This document shows, one piece after another, positions 3,614 through 18,177 of a DNA stretch of 18,367 bases. This DNA comes from a virus. A program made the translations under genes and the position numbers. The stretch lies in the UHGV virus genome UHGV-1667981; one strand, written 5' to 3'. Numbering within the stretch: the first letter of the stretch is position 1; each line of letters begins with the position of its first letter. The notes under the pieces were generated by a model, which was not told the origin of the DNA, did no database searches, and was given only the letters and a program-made list of their open reading frames with translations.

Positions 3614-3778
3614 AATACCCTCCAAATTCATATAGTTAGTGGGTTATTGCCCCTCAATGACACGAACTGTAACTCTGCCAAACGAACACATCCAGTGTTA
3701 TTTTTCGCTTTTTAATGAAATTTTTAATTTGCGTTGTTTTCTTGTTTTGGTGTATTTTATGGATGTGGAGGCTATAAT

Positions 3779-4090
3779 ATGTTTAACGTGATAACCCACC
3801 CTGCAGCACTGGATGAACTGCTTGAACTACCAGATGATTTGCGAGGTCGCATGGCCAGATTAATTGAGCGACTGGAGAAAGAAGGCAACAAACTGAAGAT
3901 GCCCCATAGCCGTGTAATAGGTGGAGGGCTTTTTGAACTACGAGTAGGGGATAAAAACATCGCAAGAACGCTGTACGCCTACGCGACTGGTAACGAAATT
4001 TATCTATTGCATGCATTTGTAAAAAAGACACAGAAAACACCGGTGAAGGCTATCGAAATCGCCAGAACTCGCCTGAAGGAGATGAACTGA
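3779..4090 (+). CDS. Type II toxin, RelE/ParE superfamily, HigB-like (Gp49-like)
   Basis: ORF 3734..4090(+); favoured start ATG 3779 with GGAGG SD 8 nt upstream. Motifs GGGLFELRV and LLHAFVKKTQKTP are recalled as typical of HigB/Gp49-like toxins. Toxin-first order, stop overlaps antitoxin start (TGATG). Confidence 0.8.
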   Translation: MFNVITHPAALDELLELPDDLRGRMARLIERLEKEGNKLKMPHSRVIGGGLFELRVGDKNIARTLYAYATGNEIYLLHAFVKKTQKTPVKAIEIARTRLKEMN

Positions 4091-4377
4091 TGAAAGCGAA
4101 AGGCATCCCGTTTAACGAAGTAAAAGAAAAACTCCTCAACACTCCAGAAGCCGTCAAAGGATATGAAGAGGCCGACAAAGAGCTGGAGATGGTCGAAATG
4201 TTATACGAAATGAGGGAAAGAGCAGGTTTAACGAAATCAGCTCTGGCTGAACGAATGGGGTTACGACCGTCAGCCATCAGCCGCCTGGAAAGCAATCCTT
4301 TAGGGGCAAGTATGAAAACTTTGGCTAAATATGCTCATGCCTGCGGCGCAGCCATCGATATTCGCGCTGTTTATTAA
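4090..4377 (+). CDS. HTH (XRE-family) antitoxin, HigA-like
   Basis: ORF 4090..4377(+), 95 aa. Helix-turn-helix segment LTKSALAERMGLRPSAISRLE. AAGGAG SD 8 nt upstream. Translationally coupled to the upstream toxin. Confidence 0.85.
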   Translation: MKAKGIPFNEVKEKLLNTPEAVKGYEEADKELEMVEMLYEMRERAGLTKSALAERMGLRPSAISRLESNPLGASMKTLAKYAHACGAAIDIRAVY

Positions 4378-4419: not shown

Positions 4420-4623
4420 TCAATGATGTGAACGCTCAACAGCGATAGTTTTCTGACAATGCTGGGCAATCTCTCGCGACATGTTGATGAGTCGTGAAAC
4501 CTCACCAATATGTAGGCTGGCTTCTGGAGAAGCCAGGGTGACGCTAACCAGATCCAGAATGGCGTCAATATCTCTTAAATTTGAATCGAGTTGTTCAAGA
4601 GTTGATACGGCTGCTTCAGACAT
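4420..4623 (-). CDS. Small protein (67 aa) downstream of a LexA box; candidate SOS-inducible antirepressor
   Basis: ORF 4420..4623(-). A CTGT-N8-ACAG LexA box lies 37-56 bp upstream of the start and overlaps a candidate -10. Function is inferred from context only; no sequence family recognised. Confidence 0.5.
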   Translation of the reverse strand: MSEAAVSTLEQLDSNLRDIDAILDLVSVTLASPEASLHIGEVSRLINMSREIAQHCQKTIAVERSHH

Positions 4624-4659: not shown

Positions 4660-4679
4660 TACTGTATAAAATTACAGGG
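4660..4679. promoter_or_regulatory. LexA (SOS) box tACTGTATAAAATTACAGgg
   Basis: Both CTGT and ACAG half-sites intact with an AT-rich 8-bp spacer; 15/20 matches to the TACTGTATATATATACAGTA consensus by eye. Overlaps a candidate promoter (TTGAGT-17-TACAGT on the minus strand) for the 4420..4623 gene. Confidence 0.6.
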
Positions 4680-7524: not shown

Positions 7525-7801
7525 CCTCTCTGATTTCCAAGTAACGCTTAATCCAAAGATTTTCTATATGCTTATTACCTGGCTGATTTGATAAATACCA
7601 ATCGGCAATTACAGACTGCTTATTACTATCTGGTCGTGTCCTGTAACCACAAGTTGGACACCAGATAACATATTCATTTCTTACCCCCGAATACCTTAAT
7701 TCTGGCTTCGACGGTTTCCTGAACATAACTTGTTTACAAAGGCAGAATGGCACTTCCTGCCCTATGGCGTTTGATGATTTCACTGCGCTTCTCCGCCGCA
7801 T
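7481..7801 (-). CDS. Hypothetical Cys-rich protein (106 aa), possible zinc ribbon
   Basis: ORF track 7481..7801(-); FCLC...WCPTCGY cysteine pairs. C-terminal codons GCG ACC GTG GTC GCA CAA (ATVVAQ) are the 18-bp palindrome. Overlaps the upstream gene by 68 nt at its 5' end, so the start is uncertain. Confidence 0.4.
   Translation of the reverse strand: MRRRSAVKSSNAIGQEVPFCLCKQVMFRKPSKPELRYSGVRNEYVIWCPTCGYRTRPDSNKQSVIADWYLSNQPGNKHIENLWIKRYLEIREGATVVAQENENNAI
7507..7524. repeat. 18-bp palindrome GTGCGACC-AC-GGTCGCAC (copy 2 of 3, opposite orientation)
   Basis: Exact reverse complement of the 18-mer at 3128..3145. Lies at the overlap junction of two minus-strand ORFs. Confidence 0.5.
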
Positions 7802-8444
7802 TTAATAATGCAGTTCGATTTAAGCTCAGACATCGCGACTTAATTAAAAGCCAGCGTTCTTTATAATCTTGTCTCCAGCTATCAATAGATATATTCAGTA
7901 GAAAACTCAGATGCCTGTCCTGTTCTCTCTCATCAACTGCCTCAGCACACGTAAGTTCTGATTTAACCTGCTGTGCCGCGTAATAAATCAATTTCCGCAT
8001 GGCTTTTTTCGTGGAGGCCTTCATTTTTTTAAAGCCGCCCCCCGAATGAGCAACCAGAAAATCAAGCCATAACCACTGACAAACAATCACATCATTGTTG
8101 TAATCAGGCTTGCATCCGTAGCAATAATAAAGCCAGGCTGATTCCTCGTTATTCAACTGACCAATAGCCCTGCGCCAGCTGGCGCTCTGAAAATCAATAT
8201 CAGTGAGCAACATTGATGATTGTTTAAATGTTTTCCCCTGATGGAATCTAACCGGCTCAGCAGGAACGGACACTTCGTATGAGTTATCATCCCCCACACT
8301 GATTGACCGGACTGGTTTATAGTTAAACCGTCCTGACCTACCGAGACGCATCTGCTCAAGCTGGACCTCCAGAATGCCACCCTGGCGATAATGAACATCA
8401 GCCAATGCCGTAGAGACGCAGCTGCGTATATACTCAAGCTCCAC
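7734..8444 (-). CDS. Hypothetical protein (236 aa); candidate Q-like late regulator by position downstream of cro
   Basis: ORF 7734..8444(-), GTG start preceded by AAGGAG. Several Cys (YYCYGCKPDY). Function is inferred only from synteny with the N15-type immB order (cB, cro, Q) as recalled; no motif-level support. Confidence 0.5.
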   Translation of the reverse strand: MELEYIRSCVSTALADVHYRQGGILEVQLEQMRLGRSGRFNYKPVRSISVGDDNSYEVSVPAEPVRFHQGKTFKQSSMLLTDIDFQSASWRRAIGQLNNEESAWLYYCYGCKPDYNNDVIVCQWLWLDFLVAHSGGGFKKMKASTKKAMRKLIYYAAQQVKSELTCAEAVDEREQDRHLSFLLNISIDSWRQDYKERWLLIKSRCLSLNRTALLNAAEKRSEIIKRHRAGSAILPL

Positions 8445-8655
8445 GCTTACTACTCTCCTTAATCGACTGCTTTACCCGCCGAGTTGTAAAGTCACTCTTC
8501 AGCTTATAAGCAGTACGAACTTCAATATCGCTTTGCCGCAATGAAGGAATCTCTCCAGCGGTTAACCATTGGTAAACAGCTCCGGGTGTTACACCTACCC
8601 CTGCCGCTGCTTTTTCTACACTGCCAAAATGGCGAATAAGTTCTTCTGGTTTCAT
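8434..8655 (-). CDS. Cro-like HTH regulator (divergent from the repressor)
   Basis: ORF 8434..8682(-); first ATG at 8655 gives MKPEELIRHFGSVEKAAAGVGVTPGAVYQWL, an HTH-like segment. Divergent from the CI-like gene across an operator-containing intergenic region. Confidence 0.7.
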   Translation of the reverse strand: MKPEELIRHFGSVEKAAAGVGVTPGAVYQWLTAGEIPSLRQSDIEVRTAYKLKSDFTTRRVKQSIKESSKRGA

Positions 8656-8682
8656 GTTGTTATTATAAACAATAAACAACAA

Positions 8683-8724
8683 TTAAAGCCAGCTATAACA
8701 AATAAATTTTATAGCCAGCTATAA
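8683..8724. promoter_or_regulatory. Two operator-like sites in the cro/repressor intergenic region: TTAAAGCCAGCTATAA (8683..8698) and palindromic TTATAGC-CA-GCTATAA (8709..8724)
   Basis: AGCCAGCTATAA repeated directly at 8687 and 8713 (26-bp spacing); the second copy has 7-bp inverted arms. Located between divergent HTH regulator genes, the classic position for operators. Confidence 0.55.
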
Positions 8725-8746
8725 GAAGATCATTTATGATTACAGT

Positions 8747-9343
8747 ATGAAAACACGAGGCGAACGACTGAAAGCACGCCGTTTAGAGATGAAGCTGACG
8801 TTGCGAGAAGTTGCTGAGGCTGTCGATATCTCTATAGCAGGCGTCCAAAACTTAGAACGTGGCGACGTAATGCCGTCACTGGAGATAGGTATTGCCCTGG
8901 CTAAGTGCTTACGCAAGCCAGTGCATTGGGTGCTATATGGGACAGAATATGACCCTGATCGCATTCCTGTTATTGGCACAACTGAAAGTGGGCCAGATGA
9001 AGAGTGGAAGCCGGGACAGGTTCCAAATACTGAGCGATTCCTGCCATTCATCAGCCAGCGCAATACTGTGTATGCGTTAACTATCAGCAATCTTACGCAG
9101 GGAAACTATCAGCCAGGCGATTTTCTCCTGGTCGATTCTGCGCTGGAACTGGTCCCCGGCGAGGATGTTCTGGTTCGTGATACTGCAGGAAATATCACTA
9201 TCCAGCGCCTGGCCCGTTTTGATGATGAAAATTACTATCTGGATGGAACAAACTCACAACGCGCCATCTTCAGGAAAAGCGATCTTGAATTTGTTCACCA
9301 AATAGTCGGAACGATCAAATCATTCATGGTTGAGGGTAGATGA
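8747..9343 (+). CDS. CI/CB-like prophage repressor: N-terminal XRE-type HTH plus C-terminal LexA/S24-like domain
   Basis: ORF 8747..9343(+), 198 aa. HTH region LTLREVAEAVDISIAGVQNLERG; C-terminal PGDFLLVD...GEDVLVRD resembles the S24 fold. No obvious Ser in a G-x-S-M context, so autocleavage may be absent. Confidence 0.85.
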   Translation: MKTRGERLKARRLEMKLTLREVAEAVDISIAGVQNLERGDVMPSLEIGIALAKCLRKPVHWVLYGTEYDPDRIPVIGTTESGPDEEWKPGQVPNTERFLPFISQRNTVYALTISNLTQGNYQPGDFLLVDSALELVPGEDVLVRDTAGNITIQRLARFDDENYYLDGTNSQRAIFRKSDLEFVHQIVGTIKSFMVEGR

Positions 9344-9442
9344 CTTAATACGGGGTTTATTGTTTGCTGTAAATCTGGTTTAATGCAGGGCATATGTTCT
9401 GTGGGTTGACTCAGGTTACAGCAGCAGAAAAAAGACGAAAAA

Positions 9443-9471
9443 AACCCGAGTCGGCAAACTCGGGTCCTTTT
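9443..9471 (+). terminator. Intrinsic terminator downstream of the repressor gene (8-bp stem ACCCGAGT/ACTCGGGT, 6-nt loop, T-tract)
   Basis: acccgagt-cggcaa-actcgggt then ccTTTTc; preceded by an A-tract, so it could act bidirectionally. Confidence 0.6.
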
Positions 9472-9587
9472 CAGGAAGCAGCCACAACAAAGCGACGGAT
9501 TCCGTCAATCAAAGATGCGTTTATTGTGGCTGCTCCTGCGGATTTTTTCAACCCGAAAAAACATAATTCGCATGGAATGGCTAAAAA

Positions 9588-12500
9588 ATGACATTAAACG
9601 ATTTCTATGCGGATCGCTTTGGCAGCGATCCGTTCTCGCTAATTGAAGCAGCACGGGATGAACTAACCGAGCTGGCACAGATGGCTGGTATCAACTGGCC
9701 TGCCTGTTCCGACAACATCCAACTCAACCCTCGCGGGGGTGTTGAGCGTTACTCTTCATACAATAAAACATCTCCAGAAGCTCTCGAGAAGAGCCTCAAA
9801 GGACGCGTAGAAATTTACTCCCGGCTGGAACACAGCAAAGGGATTGATTATCCGTTCATTAACTTCGTCCATAAAGGCAGCGATGCTGGCTCATGGAGCG
9901 GTTTCTCCTTCCTGTTTTCTGAATATCGCCGTGAGCAACAGCGGAATAATGCGACCGTGGTCGCACAACCGGAAGAAGAACGGGCAAGAATAGAACGTCA
10001 GGCCGAAGCACGTCGTCGCCGTGAAGAACAAAAACGAATTAATGACCTGAAAAACAACCAAATGGACCATGAACGTTTGCTGGGATGGCTGGCATTTCAC
10101 AGCGCGTGGGAACATGCTCCTGCAGAAGACGGCTCGTGGCCATATGCGATTAAAAAAGGTATTCGTGACGTTTTTAATTCGTGTGATGTGCGTCGCGTGA
10201 CCAGTCACGACAGCGCAAAATGGAGCAGGGGGCCAACCACGTATATGGCTATCCCTCTGGCTCACCTGGACGGTCGTTACGATGGTCGTATTGTGGGTTG
10301 GCAGCGAATCGACAAACAAGGTGGAAAATACCAGACCAGCGCCGTAACCAGCGGCGATTTCGTCGGTGCCTGCTTTGTTATCGGTGAGCTAAAAGGGGCG
10401 CAAAACATCGCTGTTACAGAAGGTTTTGCTACTGGTGCATCCATCTGGCTTGCCACGAAAAAAGATAAACGCTTTGACGCTGTGGTTGTCGCTGTATCCG
10501 CTAACAACATGGTTCATGTTGTGGAACAACTGGTAAACATGTACCCGGCGGCAAAAATCACCTGCGCACTGGATAATGACAGGAAATCAGCTACAGAAGG
10601 AAAAGGGAATACCGGCCTGCGGACTGGCTATGAAATCTTATCGAAATTCAACGATGTCCGCTGCGTCTATCCAACTTTTGAAGACGATCCGCAAATGGAG
10701 TGCAGTGACTTCAACGACCTGCACAAACTACGTGGACTTCGTGAAACAGCACGTCAACTGTTTGCAACTGCAAACCGCCTGAAAACTGGCACTGATTTGC
10801 TATCTCTGACGCTCAACCGCCTGAAGACAATTAAGCGGGATAACCGTCGTACTTTTGCCAAAGAGCTGCTGAGAGCGGTGGATATTGGCATGCTAACCTG
10901 CCCGGTTCCTAACAGTCCGTCAGATTTATTTAACATGTTCTGCATCGTTCTGCGTGAAATGGGACTGGAAAATATCTATCGCGCTACGGTAAAAGACCAC
11001 ATTGCCCGTCGCCTGAATAAAAAGTGCCGTATTGCCCAGGCTCCGCGCTCTTTCAGCGAACGCATAACTGATCCCAATAAACGCCCTCAACATATCACCT
11101 ATAAGCGTTTTGAAACTTCGGTAATGACCGATGATGTCCTGAAGTACGTGCAATCACTACAGGGGATAGTCATCGTCCGTGCTGGTATGGGTTCCGGCAA
11201 ATCTACTGGATTGTTACGACCGTTAATGCATAGCTCAGAACGTGGTATCTCTGTTGCTCACCGTGTCTCCCTTATTGGTGGCCTGTGGGAAATGATGACA
11301 GAAGGAAAAGGTGTAAAAGCCGATATCCTGCACTATCAGGACCCTGGCTATCAGGAAATGGCTCCATACGCCAGTAAACTGACCATCTGCATAAACTCGA
11401 TTGTTAAAAACTGCTGGCAACCGTTGATGCGCCAGCACGACTATTTTGGCTTTGACGAGGCCACGCAAGGGCTACGTGCCGTTCTTTCCGGTCGGGCTAT
11501 GGAAAACCCGGTTGCTGTATTCAATACGCTAATTGACGCGCTGGCCAGAACGGAACAACACCCAATCATGGTGGATGCTGATGCGAACGATCTACTGGTT
11601 GACCTGGCTGAACTGGCTATGAAACGCCGTGAAGAACTAGGTTTACCGGCATGGCTGCAGATCCACGTAATTGAATTACCTGTTGATGTTTGCAACCGCG
11701 AAACAGGTGAGCCAATCCGGGTTTTTTATACAGAAAAAGATCGCATCATGACCGAGGTGGTGAAAGCTGTATCGGATGGCGAAAAAATCATGTTGGCCAC
11801 CGACAGCTCCACCTTTGCAGAAGATGTGACAGCCACCCTGAGAATGCATTTTCCTGGTAAGAAATTTCTGTGTGTAAACCAGAAAAACAAACCAGAGCCA
11901 GAAGTTGAAGCATTTACCAATCAACCGAAAAAGATGGTCAAAAAATACGACGGCCTGATTTATAGCCCGTCTATTTCATCCGGCGTGTCGATTGAGCAAA
12001 AACATTTTGACCGTCATTTCGGCATGTTCTGTGGTGAAGTTGTACCCAGCGACGCAGTGCAAATGCTACGCCGCGACCGTACAGCAAAAGAATTTATTAT
12101 CGGCTTTGATAAAGCTCGTGCAAAACGTGAAACTGACCCGCAAAAAATAGAACGAGCATTCGCCCAGGCATTGCTTGCTACCGCAGGTATGAACGGTGAA
12201 CTTACGGATGTCGTTTTCGATGGCGACCGTATATCAATGGGGGTGGCCAATACCGACTTTACCAGGATGAAAATTAAAGCAGCCGCAATTGAAGCGACTG
12301 CGCGTAACGACTACGCCAGCAACATGATCTGCATCATGCACAGCGACGGTTATAAGGTATCACCGCTGGCCACCGATTATGCTGCGAATGATATCGGTAA
12401 AGATCTGCGTAAAGAAGCGCGGGATATTGTGTGGGAACAGACACTGGATCTGCACCTCAATACAGAAACTCCACAAGAATCAGAGCGTGAAGAACTGCTA

Positions 12501-14302: not shown

Positions 14303-14530
14303 ATGGTGAACTGCAACAAAAATGAAGAAACTCGCCTGGTTTGGACGGTAGTAATCGGAGATAAAAAGGGCGGTGAAGAGCCTCATTTTGATTATTCTGT
14401 GGCTTTGCAGGCTCTCATCCTTGAAGCGCAGATATACCAACAAGAGATGCAGAAGAACCCTCAACTGGAACCTCGACCAATTGGCCTATTCTGCGAGCGA
14501 GTATCAGCGGCTGAACTCCCTGATATCTGA
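14303..14530 (+). CDS. Hypothetical small protein (75 aa)
   Basis: ORF track 14303..14530(+); AGGAG SD 7 nt upstream. No recognisable domain. Confidence 0.5.
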   Translation: MVNCNKNEETRLVWTVVIGDKKGGEEPHFDYSVALQALILEAQIYQQEMQKNPQLEPRPIGLFCERVSAAELPDI

Positions 14531-14611: not shown

Positions 14612-14637
14612 TAAAATGTCTTTTCAAATTATTGACG

Positions 14638-14746
14638 TGTGCGTCGTTTTGACGGTAAAGTTACTTCGCTGCGGTAAATCCCGTAGCCGGGACTCTCAAC
14701 CCCGAAATCCGAACGACGCACAACACGCGCCAGCGTGTTTTTTTGT
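14638..14746 (+). ncRNA. Candidate structured small RNA or leader (c4/CA-RNA-like) ending in an intrinsic terminator
   Basis: Long-range stem gtgcgtcgtt (14640..14649) pairs with aacgacgcac (14712..14721), enclosing about 60 nt. Followed by terminator hairpin aacacgc-gcca-gcgtgtt plus T-run (14722..14746). No credible coding ORF here. Identity as a regulatory RNA is inferred from position and structure only. Confidence 0.35.
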
Positions 14747-14844
14747 GTGTATGAGCCTGCGCATATCCGAATTATGGTGGCTCAGGTGGGGCAGCCGAAA
14801 GGCTGGCCGGTGTCGTTTGGGCCGGTGTTGAGAACCCCGCTTGG

Positions 14845-14890
14845 GCTACCACCCCATAGAGATTCTCAACTCTGGTGGTAGCACTGTTTT
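14845..14890 (+). terminator. Attenuator-like hairpin (9-bp stem GCTACCACC/GGTGGTAGC, 20-nt loop) followed by TTTT, just upstream of the antirepressor operon SD
   Basis: Loop contains TTCTCAAC, which is complementary to GTTGAGAA at 14827..14834 and is also repeated (CTCTCAAC) at 14693..14700. T-run starts 4 nt after the stem. Confidence 0.35.
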
Positions 14891-14910
14891 ACCAAACAAG
14901 AGTGCATACC

Positions 14911-15075
14911 ATGTTCAAATTCAAATTTGCGGCAGTCGTTCGCACAGACAAAAAGTCACACATCCATCATCTTTCCACCATCGCGTCATCTGAACGGGAA
15001 GCTCGTCGCCAGTTCGCCAGCCGGTTTGTCCTGGTATTGTCTGCCCGTATTCCGGTGCGCGAGGTGGCTGCATGA
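14911..15075 (+). CDS. Small protein (54 aa), first gene of the antirepressor operon; possibly Icd-like
   Basis: ORF 14875..15075(+); ATG 14911 preceded by AAGAG with 8-nt spacer. Stop overlaps the next gene's start (ATGA). Icd-like role is a guess from operon position. Confidence 0.45.
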   Translation: MFKFKFAAVVRTDKKSHIHHLSTIASSEREARRQFASRFVLVLSARIPVREVAA

Positions 15076-15305
15076 ATCAGGTAAAAATGAACACTGTTGG
15101 CCTGCTGGAATCGTTGGATGAACGTCTGGCTCAGGTCTATGCGCTTGTGTCATCCGCCCATCGTACAGTCTCCAGCTGTGAGGCGTCGATTTATCTCTCA
15201 GAAGCCGGGAAGCTCCTTCAAATTGCGTGTGAGTTGACACACAAAGCACAGGGGTATTCAGCATCTCTCTCGTCGCAATTGCAGCACAATAAGGAGGCCA
15301 AATGA
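15072..15305 (+). CDS. Hypothetical protein (77 aa), second gene of the antirepressor operon
   Basis: ORF track 15072..15305(+); GAGGTGG SD upstream; ATGA overlaps at both ends indicate translational coupling. Confidence 0.55.
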   Translation: MNQVKMNTVGLLESLDERLAQVYALVSSAHRTVSSCEASIYLSEAGKLLQIACELTHKAQGYSASLSSQLQHNKEAK

Positions 15306-16084
15306 GCGCGTTAGCTGTATTTTCGTTTCAGGAAGAGCATCAGGTTCGTGTAGTGATGATTAACGGCGATCCGTGGTTTGTAGCGGCTGATGTTTGTAAT
15401 GCCATCGGGATTATCAATCATCGTGATGCTGTTGGTAAGTTGGATGAAGACGAAAAGGGGGTCGGTTCAACAGACACCCTTGGAGGTAAACAGGGAGTGA
15501 CAATTATTAACGAATCCGGCCTCTATACCCTAATCCTCCGCTGCCGTGACGCGGTGAAGCAAGGCACAACAGCTTGGCGGTTTCGCAAATGGGTAACGAA
15601 CGAAGTCTTGCCCTCTATTCGCAAAAATGGAGAGTACGTTTACGTCGAGCCAGAGCCAATGCGAGCAGCAGAGCCGTTGAACTGGAGGCAGAAAGAGTAT
15701 CTGCGAGGGCTGATTAACGATATTGCACAAAGTTTTCAATACCGAAATGCCTGGATTAGCGGTGTATGGTTGGCTTTGCGTCGGGCGTGTCGTAATCCAT
15801 CCCCGAACCCCATAACTGTTGATGATTTGCCAGCAATTACGGCAGAACTGCGCCGGATTTTGACGGCTGCTGAGTCGGCATTGGGGAACATGCGCACGTA
15901 TGAACGAGAGTTGTTGCGTGATGTTGTTCGTGGTGGTAGGCGGAGTATGTCGTGTGGTGATTTGCCCATCACCGATATCAACTCTGATCTGGAAAAGGCG
16001 TTACCCGCGCATTTTGAACTGGCAGTTCAAAAACTTGAGCAGTTGTCCGCGCAGCTAAAGCCAGCAGAAATCACCAATAAATAG
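15302..16084 (+). CDS. Prophage antirepressor with Bro-N/AntA-type N-terminal domain
   Basis: ORF 15302..16084(+), 260 aa; AAGGAGG SD. N-terminal motifs (GDPWFVAADVCNAIGI, LGGKQGVTIINESGLYTLILRC, WRFRKWVTNEVLPSIRKNGEY) match the Bro-N/AntA antirepressor domain as recalled. Confidence 0.8.
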   Translation: MSALAVFSFQEEHQVRVVMINGDPWFVAADVCNAIGIINHRDAVGKLDEDEKGVGSTDTLGGKQGVTIINESGLYTLILRCRDAVKQGTTAWRFRKWVTNEVLPSIRKNGEYVYVEPEPMRAAEPLNWRQKEYLRGLINDIAQSFQYRNAWISGVWLALRRACRNPSPNPITVDDLPAITAELRRILTAAESALGNMRTYERELLRDVVRGGRRSMSCGDLPITDINSDLEKALPAHFELAVQKLEQLSAQLKPAEITNK

Positions 16085-16257: not shown

Positions 16258-18177
16258 TTAGCCGAAATATGTCAGCCATGCTAACTGCATTGCTGACATG
16301 GGGCTGTTTGCACTGCCTGACCACGCATAATTCTGGCCATTATAATGAAACTCGACAACGTATGAGCCATCACCAATATTTCTCACTGGCTTAAATACCG
16401 GCTTAGATACAGGCGAAGAAGGTGCGGGTGGCTGCTGTTCTTCTACGCTTTCTTCCTCTTCCTCTTCCTCTTCCTCTTCCTCTTCCTCTTCCTCTATCTC
16501 AATTTCGTCGTCATCCAGATCGTCATCATCTGATAATTCATCCGCCTGTTCAGGTATTGCTTCCAGCTCTTCTTCGTCAGGCATAACGATTTCTGGAGTA
16601 TCTATTTTCAGCTGCCATTGTCCATTTTCGCCAACAAATTGCCCCAGAGCATCAGCAGCAAATTCCAGGTATCGACTAATCATTGTTGGGCTAAATTTGA
16701 ATGCTCTTAGCGTGCTGTTCGTGATTTTTATAGAGGGGTCCTGCTCTACCAGCTGCTTAACTGTGTTATGCAGACGAACCCCGGCATCTCCTCTGGCGAA
16801 TCCAGGCATTTCGTCATCAAGCTGCTGCAATGCTTCCAGCCTGGTATTTTCGTTTCCAGTATTTGGCCTCCATGTCTTTGAGAAGTTGGCCAGCTTGAAT
16901 TGCTTATAGTGTAATTGAGTGTTTTCATCGTCATGGCCTAAAATTTCCATAAAGAAAACATCCTCATCTACGTTTTTCCAACGAGGATCTACGCGGAAAA
17001 ACATTTCATACGCAATACGGGCATAAATAGCACGACTATCTTTATAAACACGGCGGTCATCTTTGAAAAATGATTTAACCCACGGGTTAAAAGCCTTTGC
17101 TAATATGGCATTAATACGTCCGTTTTCAGAGCGTGTGTCGTTATCTCCATAACCTTTAACGACATCATCAAAATCAGATGCTGCTGGGCATGATCGAAGT
17201 ACATTTATTAAATAAACAAATGTTTTTGCTTCGCATAATGTATATATTTTTCTGGTTATATCATCAGAAGTTCTTTTTTTAGCTTGGCCTAAAAAATCAA
17301 CGGTATACTTACCAGAAACAGTAAATGTACCTTGATACATAATCTCAATCATTCGTCTTCCTGACAATGCAGCAAGTGCAAATGCCAAAGGAGCCATACC
17401 TGAACGAGTGTTTAGATTATTTAATGTAGCAGGGCTATTTATAATATCGTAAATAGCTTGCATATATTTAGGGTAATCAATGACCACCACGTTACGTTTC
17501 TTATTGTGCAGAACGTCTGCCCATCGTTGCTGGATAGATGCGCGTTCGGCAGGGCTTAGTTGAAGATGATAGAGAATCTCATGGTTAACTTTTAGCTGAT
17601 TCAACTCCTCAAGCAAGGCAGATCCTTGCTGTAGTAATTTATATAAATAATCGCGCTTATCTTTCCAGTTATCGCTAGTTAAATCAGAAATGGCGAATTG
17701 CCACTCTTTATATTTATTTGATAATTTTAATAACTTATTATGACTTTTGTTATCACCAATTCTGATATTAGATAAATCTTCTGATAAAGGGAGAATTAAT
17801 TTTAATTTTGCCTGTAAAGCTGACATTCTCTGGCGAATATCGGCAGCAGGTAGAGAAAGCCATGATAATAGCTCCTCATTATATAAAGGATACTTTTCAG
17901 ATAGGCGATGTATATTTTTTTCAAAGCTATGATGAAGTTTATCATCAAACCGTTTTCTGGCCCTGCTCATATAGGTATTGAATGTGTTGGCTGTAATTCT
18001 TTTTTCTAATCCTTTCCCCCTAAACTTTCGCTTGTCATTAAATAATGCATTTTTAAATTTTAATGCAACAGCCTTTATTTTTTTTGTTTTTTCTCCTTGA
18101 GGACGGTCAGAGTTATCTATTGACTCAACATCGCTAACAAGTGAGTTTATTAATTCACCGATTTTTACTTTTCTCAT
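16258..18177 (-). CDS. telN: Protelomerase (telomere resolvase, TelN/TelK family)
   Basis: ORF 16258..18177(-), 639 aa; strong SD GGAGAGGAAAG upstream. Recognised from memory as closely resembling N15 TelN / phiKO2 TelK along its length (e.g. MRKVKIGELIN..., RSGMAPLAFALAALSGRRMIEI, ILGHDDENTQLHYKQF). Adjacent to a telomere-palindrome half-site at the window end. No alignment was run. Confidence 0.9.
   Translation of the reverse strand: MRKVKIGELINSLVSDVESIDNSDRPQGEKTKKIKAVALKFKNALFNDKRKFRGKGLEKRITANTFNTYMSRARKRFDDKLHHSFEKNIHRLSEKYPLYNEELLSWLSLPAADIRQRMSALQAKLKLILPLSEDLSNIRIGDNKSHNKLLKLSNKYKEWQFAISDLTSDNWKDKRDYLYKLLQQGSALLEELNQLKVNHEILYHLQLSPAERASIQQRWADVLHNKKRNVVVIDYPKYMQAIYDIINSPATLNNLNTRSGMAPLAFALAALSGRRMIEIMYQGTFTVSGKYTVDFLGQAKKRTSDDITRKIYTLCEAKTFVYLINVLRSCPAASDFDDVVKGYGDNDTRSENGRINAILAKAFNPWVKSFFKDDRRVYKDSRAIYARIAYEMFFRVDPRWKNVDEDVFFMEILGHDDENTQLHYKQFKLANFSKTWRPNTGNENTRLEALQQLDDEMPGFARGDAGVRLHNTVKQLVEQDPSIKITNSTLRAFKFSPTMISRYLEFAADALGQFVGENGQWQLKIDTPEIVMPDEEELEAIPEQADELSDDDDLDDDEIEIEEEEEEEEEEEEEEESVEEQQPPAPSSPVSKPVFKPVRNIGDGSYVVEFHYNGQNYAWSGSANSPMSAMQLAWLTYFG
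16448..16495. repeat. Hexanucleotide microsatellite (TTCCTC)x7 encoding a poly-Glu run in the protelomerase C-terminal region
   Basis: Seven perfect tandem TTCCTC units at 16454..16495 with partial flanking units; on the coding strand this is GAG/GAA giving EEEEEEEEEEEEEEEE. Confidence 0.9.

Follow-up and report, generated by a model that had tools for sequence, protein, structure and literature searches.

Is the prophage repressor encoded at 8747..9343 (+) inactivated by RecA-dependent self-cleavage, as in lambda, or must another protein remove it when the DNA is damaged? We addressed this question across the whole 18,367-nucleotide stretch of viral DNA in which the gene lies, here called the window. 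The answer that we consider very probable is that the ORF encodes CB of an N15-type linear plasmid-prophage, a non-cleaving repressor with an S24 fold, and that SOS induction runs via a LexA-gated, AntC-like antirepressor.

The cB gene and its immunity region

Escherichia phage YDC107_1 (Ravinvirus) shares 99.4% identity with the stretch 8400-9700, PhiR46_1 97%, and N15 and phiKO2 about 78%, and sequence similarity identifies the window as an N15-like linear plasmid-prophage. The ORF is intact and uninterrupted and encodes 198 aa. Its product aligns over 198/198 residues with N15 gp38 ('CB prophage repressor') at 78% identity (E 4e-121), is 78-79% identical end to end to CB of N15 and phiKO2, is 99% identical to its cluster representative P0001, and matches PHROG phrog_4 'transcriptional repressor' over residues 1-195 (E 2e-25). 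Synteny with the N15 immB region is also present: cB is divergent from cro-Q and is followed by a terminator-like hairpin, beyond which lies a 1331-aa replication gene (repA), and the element bears a protelomerase. The features of this region are as follows.

7734..8444, minus strand: Q-like antiterminator (Pfam Phage_antiter_Q, E 9e-83)
8434..8682, minus strand: cro (lytic repressor), divergent from cB (Pfam P22_Cro, E 2.5e-22; syntenic with N15 gene 39)
8660-8675, no strand: candidate first OR site in the cB-cro spacer, 16-bp T-A-N10-T-A, TTATTATAAACAATAA (repeat search; aligns with the N15 operator region)
8683-8698, no strand: candidate second OR site in the cB-cro spacer, 16-bp T-A-N10-T-A, TTAAAGCCAGCTATAA (repeat search; N15 alignment)
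8709-8724, no strand: candidate third OR site (OR3) in the cB-cro spacer, 16-bp T-A-N10-T-A, TTATAGCCAGCTATAA (repeat search; identical to the N15 site)
8747..9343 including the stop codon, plus strand: cB, primary-immunity prophage repressor (intact ORF; N15 gp38 orthology)
9357-9372, no strand: putative OL site, 3' of cB and 5' of repA, TTATTGTTTGCTGTAA (N15 alignment; T-A-N10-T-A by inspection)
9380-9395, no strand: putative OL site, 3' of cB and 5' of repA, TTAATGCAGGGCATAT (N15 alignment; T-A-N10-T-A by inspection)
9437..9472, no strand: Rho-independent terminator-like hairpin between cB and repA (inverted repeat; aligns with the annotated putative terminator of N15)
16258..18177, minus strand: protelomerase ORF

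The search for OR-type repeats gave 4 matches where 0.15 were expected. The OR region (8660..8724) lines up with what is annotated in N15 as 'CB prophage repressor operator', and the OL region (9357..9395) with the second such region in the N15 annotation (L001 9878-9916). All three OR and two OL candidates, each a 16-bp T-A-N10-T-A sequence, are present as for an N15-type CB; both the motif and the five-operator layout have been described for N15 and phiKO2 (PMC4997575). OR3 is identical to its N15 counterpart, whereas the other two OR sites and both OL sites differ from N15 at a few bases, which could give the element a different immunity specificity.

Several smaller observations concern the same region. 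The N15 annotation gives cB four additional codons (M-I-N-T ahead of MKTRG) and a 202-aa product. The ATG that lies upstream in the window, at 8736, is in another frame and meets a stop codon, leaving 8747 as the only possible start, so the protein is 198 aa long here compared with the 202 aa annotated for N15. Inspection of positions 8736-8749 revealed no clear Shine-Dalgarno sequence ahead of this start. Database entries of the repressor from Klebsiella and Enterobacter (P0036, P0039, P0045, P0046 and several of 110-157 aa) are truncated or carry frameshifts in the linker, which points to defective prophages or to errors in assembly. Downstream of the cB terminator and ahead of the start of repA, positions 9477-9534 hold a 15-nt inverted repeat (AGCAGCCACAACAAA / TTTATTGTGGCTGCT, 93% complementary, 28-nt loop) with arms that are conserved in N15; it may be a repA regulatory element. 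The protelomerase ORF contains a long acidic run (…DDDDLDDDEIEIEEEEEEEEEEEEEEES…) close to its C-terminus.

Fold of CB and the residues at its catalytic positions

The two domains of CB and the three positions that matter for self-cleavage map to the gene as follows.

8768..8929, plus strand: HTH_3 (XRE-type) DNA-binding domain, residues 8-61 (Pfam PF01381, E 3.3e-11)
8960..9340, plus strand: LexA/CI/UmuD-like (S24 fold) C-terminal domain, residues 72-198, predicted catalytically dead (sub-threshold Pfam match, profile, Foldseek)
8987..8992, plus strand: Ser81-Gly82, position of the LexA Ala84-Gly85 cleavage bond (family alignment; LexA 'VGRVAAGEP' matched by inspection)
9095..9097, plus strand: Thr117 codon (ACG), catalytic Ser position (LexA S119, CI S149, UmuD S60; column of the P0054 GDSM motif and HMM alignment)
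9203..9205, plus strand: Gln153 codon (CAG), catalytic Lys position (LexA K156, CI K192, UmuD K97; family and HMM alignments)

By sequence, the N-terminal domain matches PDB entries for DdrO, P22 C2 and the N-domains of 434 Cro and repressor. When full-length CB was compared with the PDB in this way, only HTH matches had significant E-values, and the S24 match, to UmuD, had an E-value of about 0.7. Interpretable alignments to PDB chains were obtained only with a family profile of the C-domain, and their E-values are 0.01-0.8. Pfam Peptidase_S24 (PF00717) matches residues 99-171 to profile positions 29-97 of 116, starting past the Ser motif of the profile, with 21.3 bits against a gathering score of 23.3. 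The AlphaFold2 model, for which the input was a 20-sequence family alignment, has a mean pLDDT of 87.5 and consists of a five-helix N-domain and an all-beta C-domain with pLDDT mostly 85-94. The top Foldseek matches of the model in the PDB (3bdn, 7jvt, 8gmu, 3k2z and 1jhe, probability 1.00) are lambda repressor (3bdn), a lambda-186 hybrid repressor, lambda CI on the RecA filament (8gmu), LexA and UmuD. A preliminary description of this locus had likened the C-terminal half to the CI/LexA fold, and the sub-threshold Pfam match, the profile alignment and the structural model agree with it: as modeled, the LexA/CI-like (S24 beta) fold of the CB C-domain is real.

We mapped the catalytic positions in two independent ways, by a family alignment containing P0054, a relative that retains the motifs, and by aligning a C-domain profile HMM to solved chains of UmuD and lambda CI. 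Both mappings agree: the Ala-Gly site corresponds to S81-G82, the Ser nucleophile to T117 and the Lys to Q153. In the aligned columns CB reads TTE-SG-PD, ISNLTQ and ITIQRL, where P0054 reads IGNTQ-AG-PD, VVGDSM and VMVKRL. In the HMM alignment the T117 column falls on GDS of UmuD and GNS of CI, and the Q153 column on TVKKL of UmuD and TFKKL of CI. The earlier remark that no Ser could be found in a G-x-S-M-like context at the expected position is thus borne out, in that CB has Thr117 in 'SNLTQ' at the nucleophile position, and the Ser/Lys dyad, which a profile alignment had been proposed to locate or exclude, is absent by both mappings, with Thr117 and Gln153 in its place. The loss extends beyond what had been noted, because the Lys (now Gln153) and the Ala-Gly bond (now Ser81-Gly82) are gone as well.

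The same pattern holds across the family. Among 51 homologs of at least 150 aa each, the Ser-nucleophile column contains I in 23, V in 17, T in 2 (3 with the window), S in 2, K in 2 and other residues in the rest. The Lys-base column contains Q in 31 (32 with the window), Y in 5, L in 4, G in 4, M in 3, F in 2, T in 1 and K in 1, the single Lys being that of P0054. At the cleavage site, AG occurs in 3/51 homologs, P0054 included, and nearly all others have SG or TG; Ser, Lys and Ala-Gly occur together in P0054 only (1/51). Position 117 is Thr in the window CB and Ala in the 99%-identical P0001, a difference implying that the Thr117 hydroxyl is unconstrained. Measured against the Peptidase S24 family, CB scores below the Pfam gathering threshold and has no Ser nucleophile, no Lys base and no Ala-Gly or Cys-Gly bond. 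By these alignments it belongs to the N15 CB repressor family and has the S24 fold but lacks every catalytic hallmark for which we looked.

The domain appears to be maintained nonetheless. Nei-Gojobori dN/dS for CB as a whole is about 0.1 against both N15 and phiKO2; residues 71-198 give 0.09 against N15 and 0.08 against phiKO2, and the HTH domain 0.10 and 0.14, all of these values being approximate because dS is near saturation in the two comparisons. In addition, 14 columns of the C-domain are invariant across homologs down to 25% identity. The substitution pattern points to purifying selection on the dead S24 domain rather than decay, and together with the invariant columns it implies a conserved, non-catalytic role. 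By analogy with related repressors, that role is likely dimerisation or cooperativity and possibly antirepressor docking.

Two readings of the C-domain compete with that of a retained, non-catalytic module. One is that CB still cleaves itself, with Thr117 (or Ser114) working with another general base, so that induction would be directly RecA-dependent as in lambda. The S24 fold is kept, a Thr hydroxyl sits exactly at the nucleophile position with Ser114 three residues upstream, and a pair of a small residue and Gly (Ser-Gly) still occupies the cleavage-site position. Thr117 is a chemically potential nucleophile, and the case for lost catalysis draws chiefly on Gln153 and on the lack of conservation at residue 117. 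At the Lys position CB has Gln and homologs have Q, Y, L, G, M, F or T, with no basic residue conserved; residue 117 is replaced by Ala in the 99%-identical P0001 and by Ile or Val in 40/51 homologs, including N15 CB; and Ser114 is Gly in most orthologs. Hammerl et al. (2016, PMC4997575) came to the same view for these two phages: the site of RecA cleavage and the active-site Ser and Lys 'were not detected in CB of phiKO2 and N15'. We therefore judge self-cleavage to be very unlikely. The other reading, that the C-domain is a functionless, decaying relic and the HTH domain works alone, would account for the missing catalytic residues and for the truncated or frameshifted database versions (P0036, P0039, P0045, P0046 and the several of 110-157 aa). 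We rejected a pseudogene or relic on dN/dS, however, which at 0.08-0.09 is as low in the C-domain as in the HTH domain, and the 14 invariant columns down to 25% identity and the confidently predicted fold (pLDDT mostly 85-94) also speak against it, so that we give this reading practically no weight.

Antirepressors and the route of induction

With the cleavage bond, nucleophile and general base all replaced, CB is predicted to be unable to cleave itself on RecA filaments, and induction would have to go through a LexA-controlled antirepressor. The suggestion in the preliminary description that a non-cleavable repressor fits induction via antirepressors is strengthened by the replaced Ser, Lys and Ala-Gly and by the literature on N15 and phiKO2. 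Its statement that the window holds two antirepressor candidates stands as to their presence but not as to their number, which is three (antC-like, antA-like and antB-like).

4420..4623, minus strand: antC-like small antirepressor, 67 aa (N15/phiKO2 homology, PHROG, LexA box)
4662..4677, no strand: LexA box CTGTATAAAATTACAG, located 38 nt ahead of the start codon of the antC-like ORF
14668-14743, plus strand: isrK-like Rfam match ahead of the C4 RNA (54.9 bits)
14770..14856, plus strand: C4-type antisense RNA of immA (Rfam RF01695, 71.8 bits against a gathering score of 45)
14875..15075: icd-like ORF of the immA operon
15072..15305, plus strand: antA-like antirepressor of the immA operon, 77 aa (62-64% identity to N15 gp31 and phiKO2 Gp28; phrog_6301, phrog_10889)
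15302..16084, plus strand: antB-like BRO-N/Ant protein of the immA operon, 260 aa (Pfam Bro-N, E 1.6e-20; PHROG 'anti-repressor Ant')

The antirepressor gene that is tied to SOS induction is the antC-like one, which lies behind a perfect LexA box. This box is the only perfect CTGT-N8-ACAG match in the 18.4-kb window, where 0.20 are expected. Because a chance match arises in about 20% of shuffled sequences (at least one in 39/200), the weight of the box comes from its conserved position: in N15 a perfect box (CTGTATATAAACACAG) lies just upstream of the syntenic ORF, YDC107_1 likewise carries a perfect one at the corresponding place, and the phiKO2 box deviates by one mismatch. The match is to the core CTGT-N8-ACAG only; the full 20-mer consensus, with up to 3 mismatches allowed, gave none. 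A simple scan for promoters detected no sigma-70 promoter of consensus type around the box, and a weak TTGAGT-17-TACAGT arrangement near it was seen by eye only.

The antC-like protein is 53% identical to the product of an N15 ORF at the same position (L001 4144-4350, minus strand), which is unannotated in the N15 RefSeq record, and 55% identical to phiKO2 Gp47. It matches phrog_6301 (E 4e-35) and phrog_10889 'anti-repressor', and the AntA-like protein of the window falls in both PHROGs too. Searches with the AntC-like protein revealed similarity to AntA-type proteins only. BLASTP of the AntC-like against the AntA-like protein of the window gave no match, and tblastn links N15 AntC with phiKO2 AntA at E 7.5e-8. 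The shared PHROG profiles and the latter match suggest that the two proteins are distant paralogs. A candidate third paralog at 14303..14530 (YDC107_1 labels a nearby ORF 'putative gp31') was rejected, as tblastn showed no similarity. A RelE/ParE-type toxin ORF and an HTH antitoxin-like ORF (3734..4090 and 4090..4377, plus strand) adjoin the antC-like gene and are convergent with it, in a layout (3734-4377) matching N15 genes 49 and 48.

Position, LexA box, PHROG assignment and AntA paralogy together lead us to infer that the ORF at 4420..4623 is the published antC. Mardanov and Ravin reportedly described the LexA-controlled AntC of N15 in 2007. N15 AntC has been placed among the LexA-controlled antirepressors (Lemire et al. 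2011, PMC3121763), acts on the N15 repressor under this control and is named as the antirepressor needed for N15 induction (PMC3121763, PMC4488713).

A second antirepressor route may be provided by immA. The isrK and C4 RNAs directly upstream of the icd/antA/antB-like operon mark, by homology, an RNA-controlled immA of the P1/P4/N15 type. The phiKO2 record describes Gp28 as 'similar to antirepressor encoded by N15 AntA', and the antB-like gene is syntenic with N15 gene 30 and phiKO2 Gp27 ('auxiliary anti-repressor AntB'). A called 71-aa ORF (14616..14831) overlaps the isrK and C4 RNAs and is probably not a gene. This module raises the alternative that CB is non-cleavable but that its relevant inactivator is AntA/AntB of immA, released when C4-RNA control fails, rather than the AntC-like protein. 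The module is complete (C4 RNA at 14770-14856, icd-like ORF, antA-like gene and BRO-N antB-like gene), and since AntA and AntC appear to be paralogous, CB may be a target of both. Against this, the perfect-box search of the window found no LexA box near immA, the sole perfect box being at antC, and the literature names AntC for N15 induction (PMC3121763, PMC4488713). The two routes are also compatible with each other. As a replacement for the AntC route we consider immA improbable, though less so than a self-cleaving CB.

The preferred reading, that of a LexA-gated AntC, can be assembled into the following mechanism. The XRE-type HTH domain of CB would bind the OR (cB-cro) and OL (upstream of repA) operators, shutting off cro-Q and limiting repA, with the C-domain serving as a non-catalytic module of the LexA/CI/UmuD beta fold. 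Host LexA would occupy the SOS box over the promoter of the antC-like gene, so that DNA damage would be sensed indirectly: upon cleavage of LexA, AntC would be made and would bind and inactivate CB. The immA operon (icd-antA-antB), gated by the C4-type antisense RNA, would form a second antirepressor route. Binding of AntC to CB, binding of LexA to the box and resistance of CB to cleavage in vitro are expected by analogy with the N15 literature.

Relation to known systems and consequences for N15-type elements

CB of the window shares with N15 and phiKO2 CB the HTH_3 and degenerate S24 domains, Gln at the Lys position, the divergent cB/cro-Q arrangement and the downstream terminator and repA, and differs at the former Ser position, where it has Thr and they have Ile or Val. 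Lambda CI, LexA and UmuD (MEROPS S24) are the best structural matches to the CB model and have in common with it a DNA-binding N-domain and an S24-fold C-domain preceded by a strand in the cleavage-site region. In contrast to these proteins, the window CB is without the Ala-Gly bond, Ser nucleophile and Lys base and scores below the Pfam family threshold; the N-domain of LexA is moreover a winged helix, whereas that of CB is XRE-type. Systems built on 186 Tum, Gifsy GfoA/GftA and N15 AntC likewise combine a non-cleavable repressor with a small antirepressor gene that lies outside the immunity region behind a LexA box, but the Gifsy and 186 repressors are without an S24-like C-domain of the CB type. 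Like P1/P7 immI and P4 immunity (C4/CI antisense RNA over icd-ant), the window immA consists of a C4 RNA followed by icd-like and ant genes; unlike them, it would serve as a secondary route whose target is a CI-like repressor rather than one of the P1 C1 type.

The one homolog with all three hallmarks, P0054 (L003 10001-10606, a contig of Logan accession SRR11077329), is 42% identical to CB and keeps Ala-Gly, the Ser of GDSM and Lys. Its contig has the same repressor-cro-Q layout, adjoining P22_Cro and Q genes, and the 10 kb on the cro-Q side of this single partial contig contain no antC homolog and no perfect LexA box. By its motifs, P0054 may be a self-cleaving member of the CB repressor lineage. 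The close relatives in which antC lies behind a LexA box are the window, N15, YDC107_1 and, with one mismatch in the box, phiKO2. The CB family could conceivably capture a switch in induction mode, from self-cleavage (P0054) to a LexA-gated antirepressor in the members that have lost the hallmarks, although we hold this only tentatively and would sooner bet against it; coming from a single partial contig, the P0054 pattern is a lead and not a result. If the switch is true, the CB family would be a natural before-and-after pair for the rewiring of SOS sensing in phages. More speculatively, the dead S24 domain may have been retained as a docking surface for AntC.

That CB is a pseudo-protease and that induction goes through LexA and AntC is already published for N15 and is here rediscovered in a 78%-identical ortholog. 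Slightly new are the explicit mapping to S81-G82, T117 and Q153, the purifying selection on the dead domain, and the existence of P0054 with all three hallmarks. Names given to orthologs, such as 'LexA family transcriptional regulator' and 'S24 family peptidase', wrongly imply self-cleavage. In N15-type phage-plasmids the repressor would instead be a pseudo-protease, and DNA-damage induction would depend on host LexA and a tiny antirepressor gene. Predictions of inducibility and immunity should thus seek antC and its LexA box rather than a Ser/Lys dyad. N15-type phage-plasmids are widespread in Enterobacteriaceae, and the finding on CB matters mainly for annotation.
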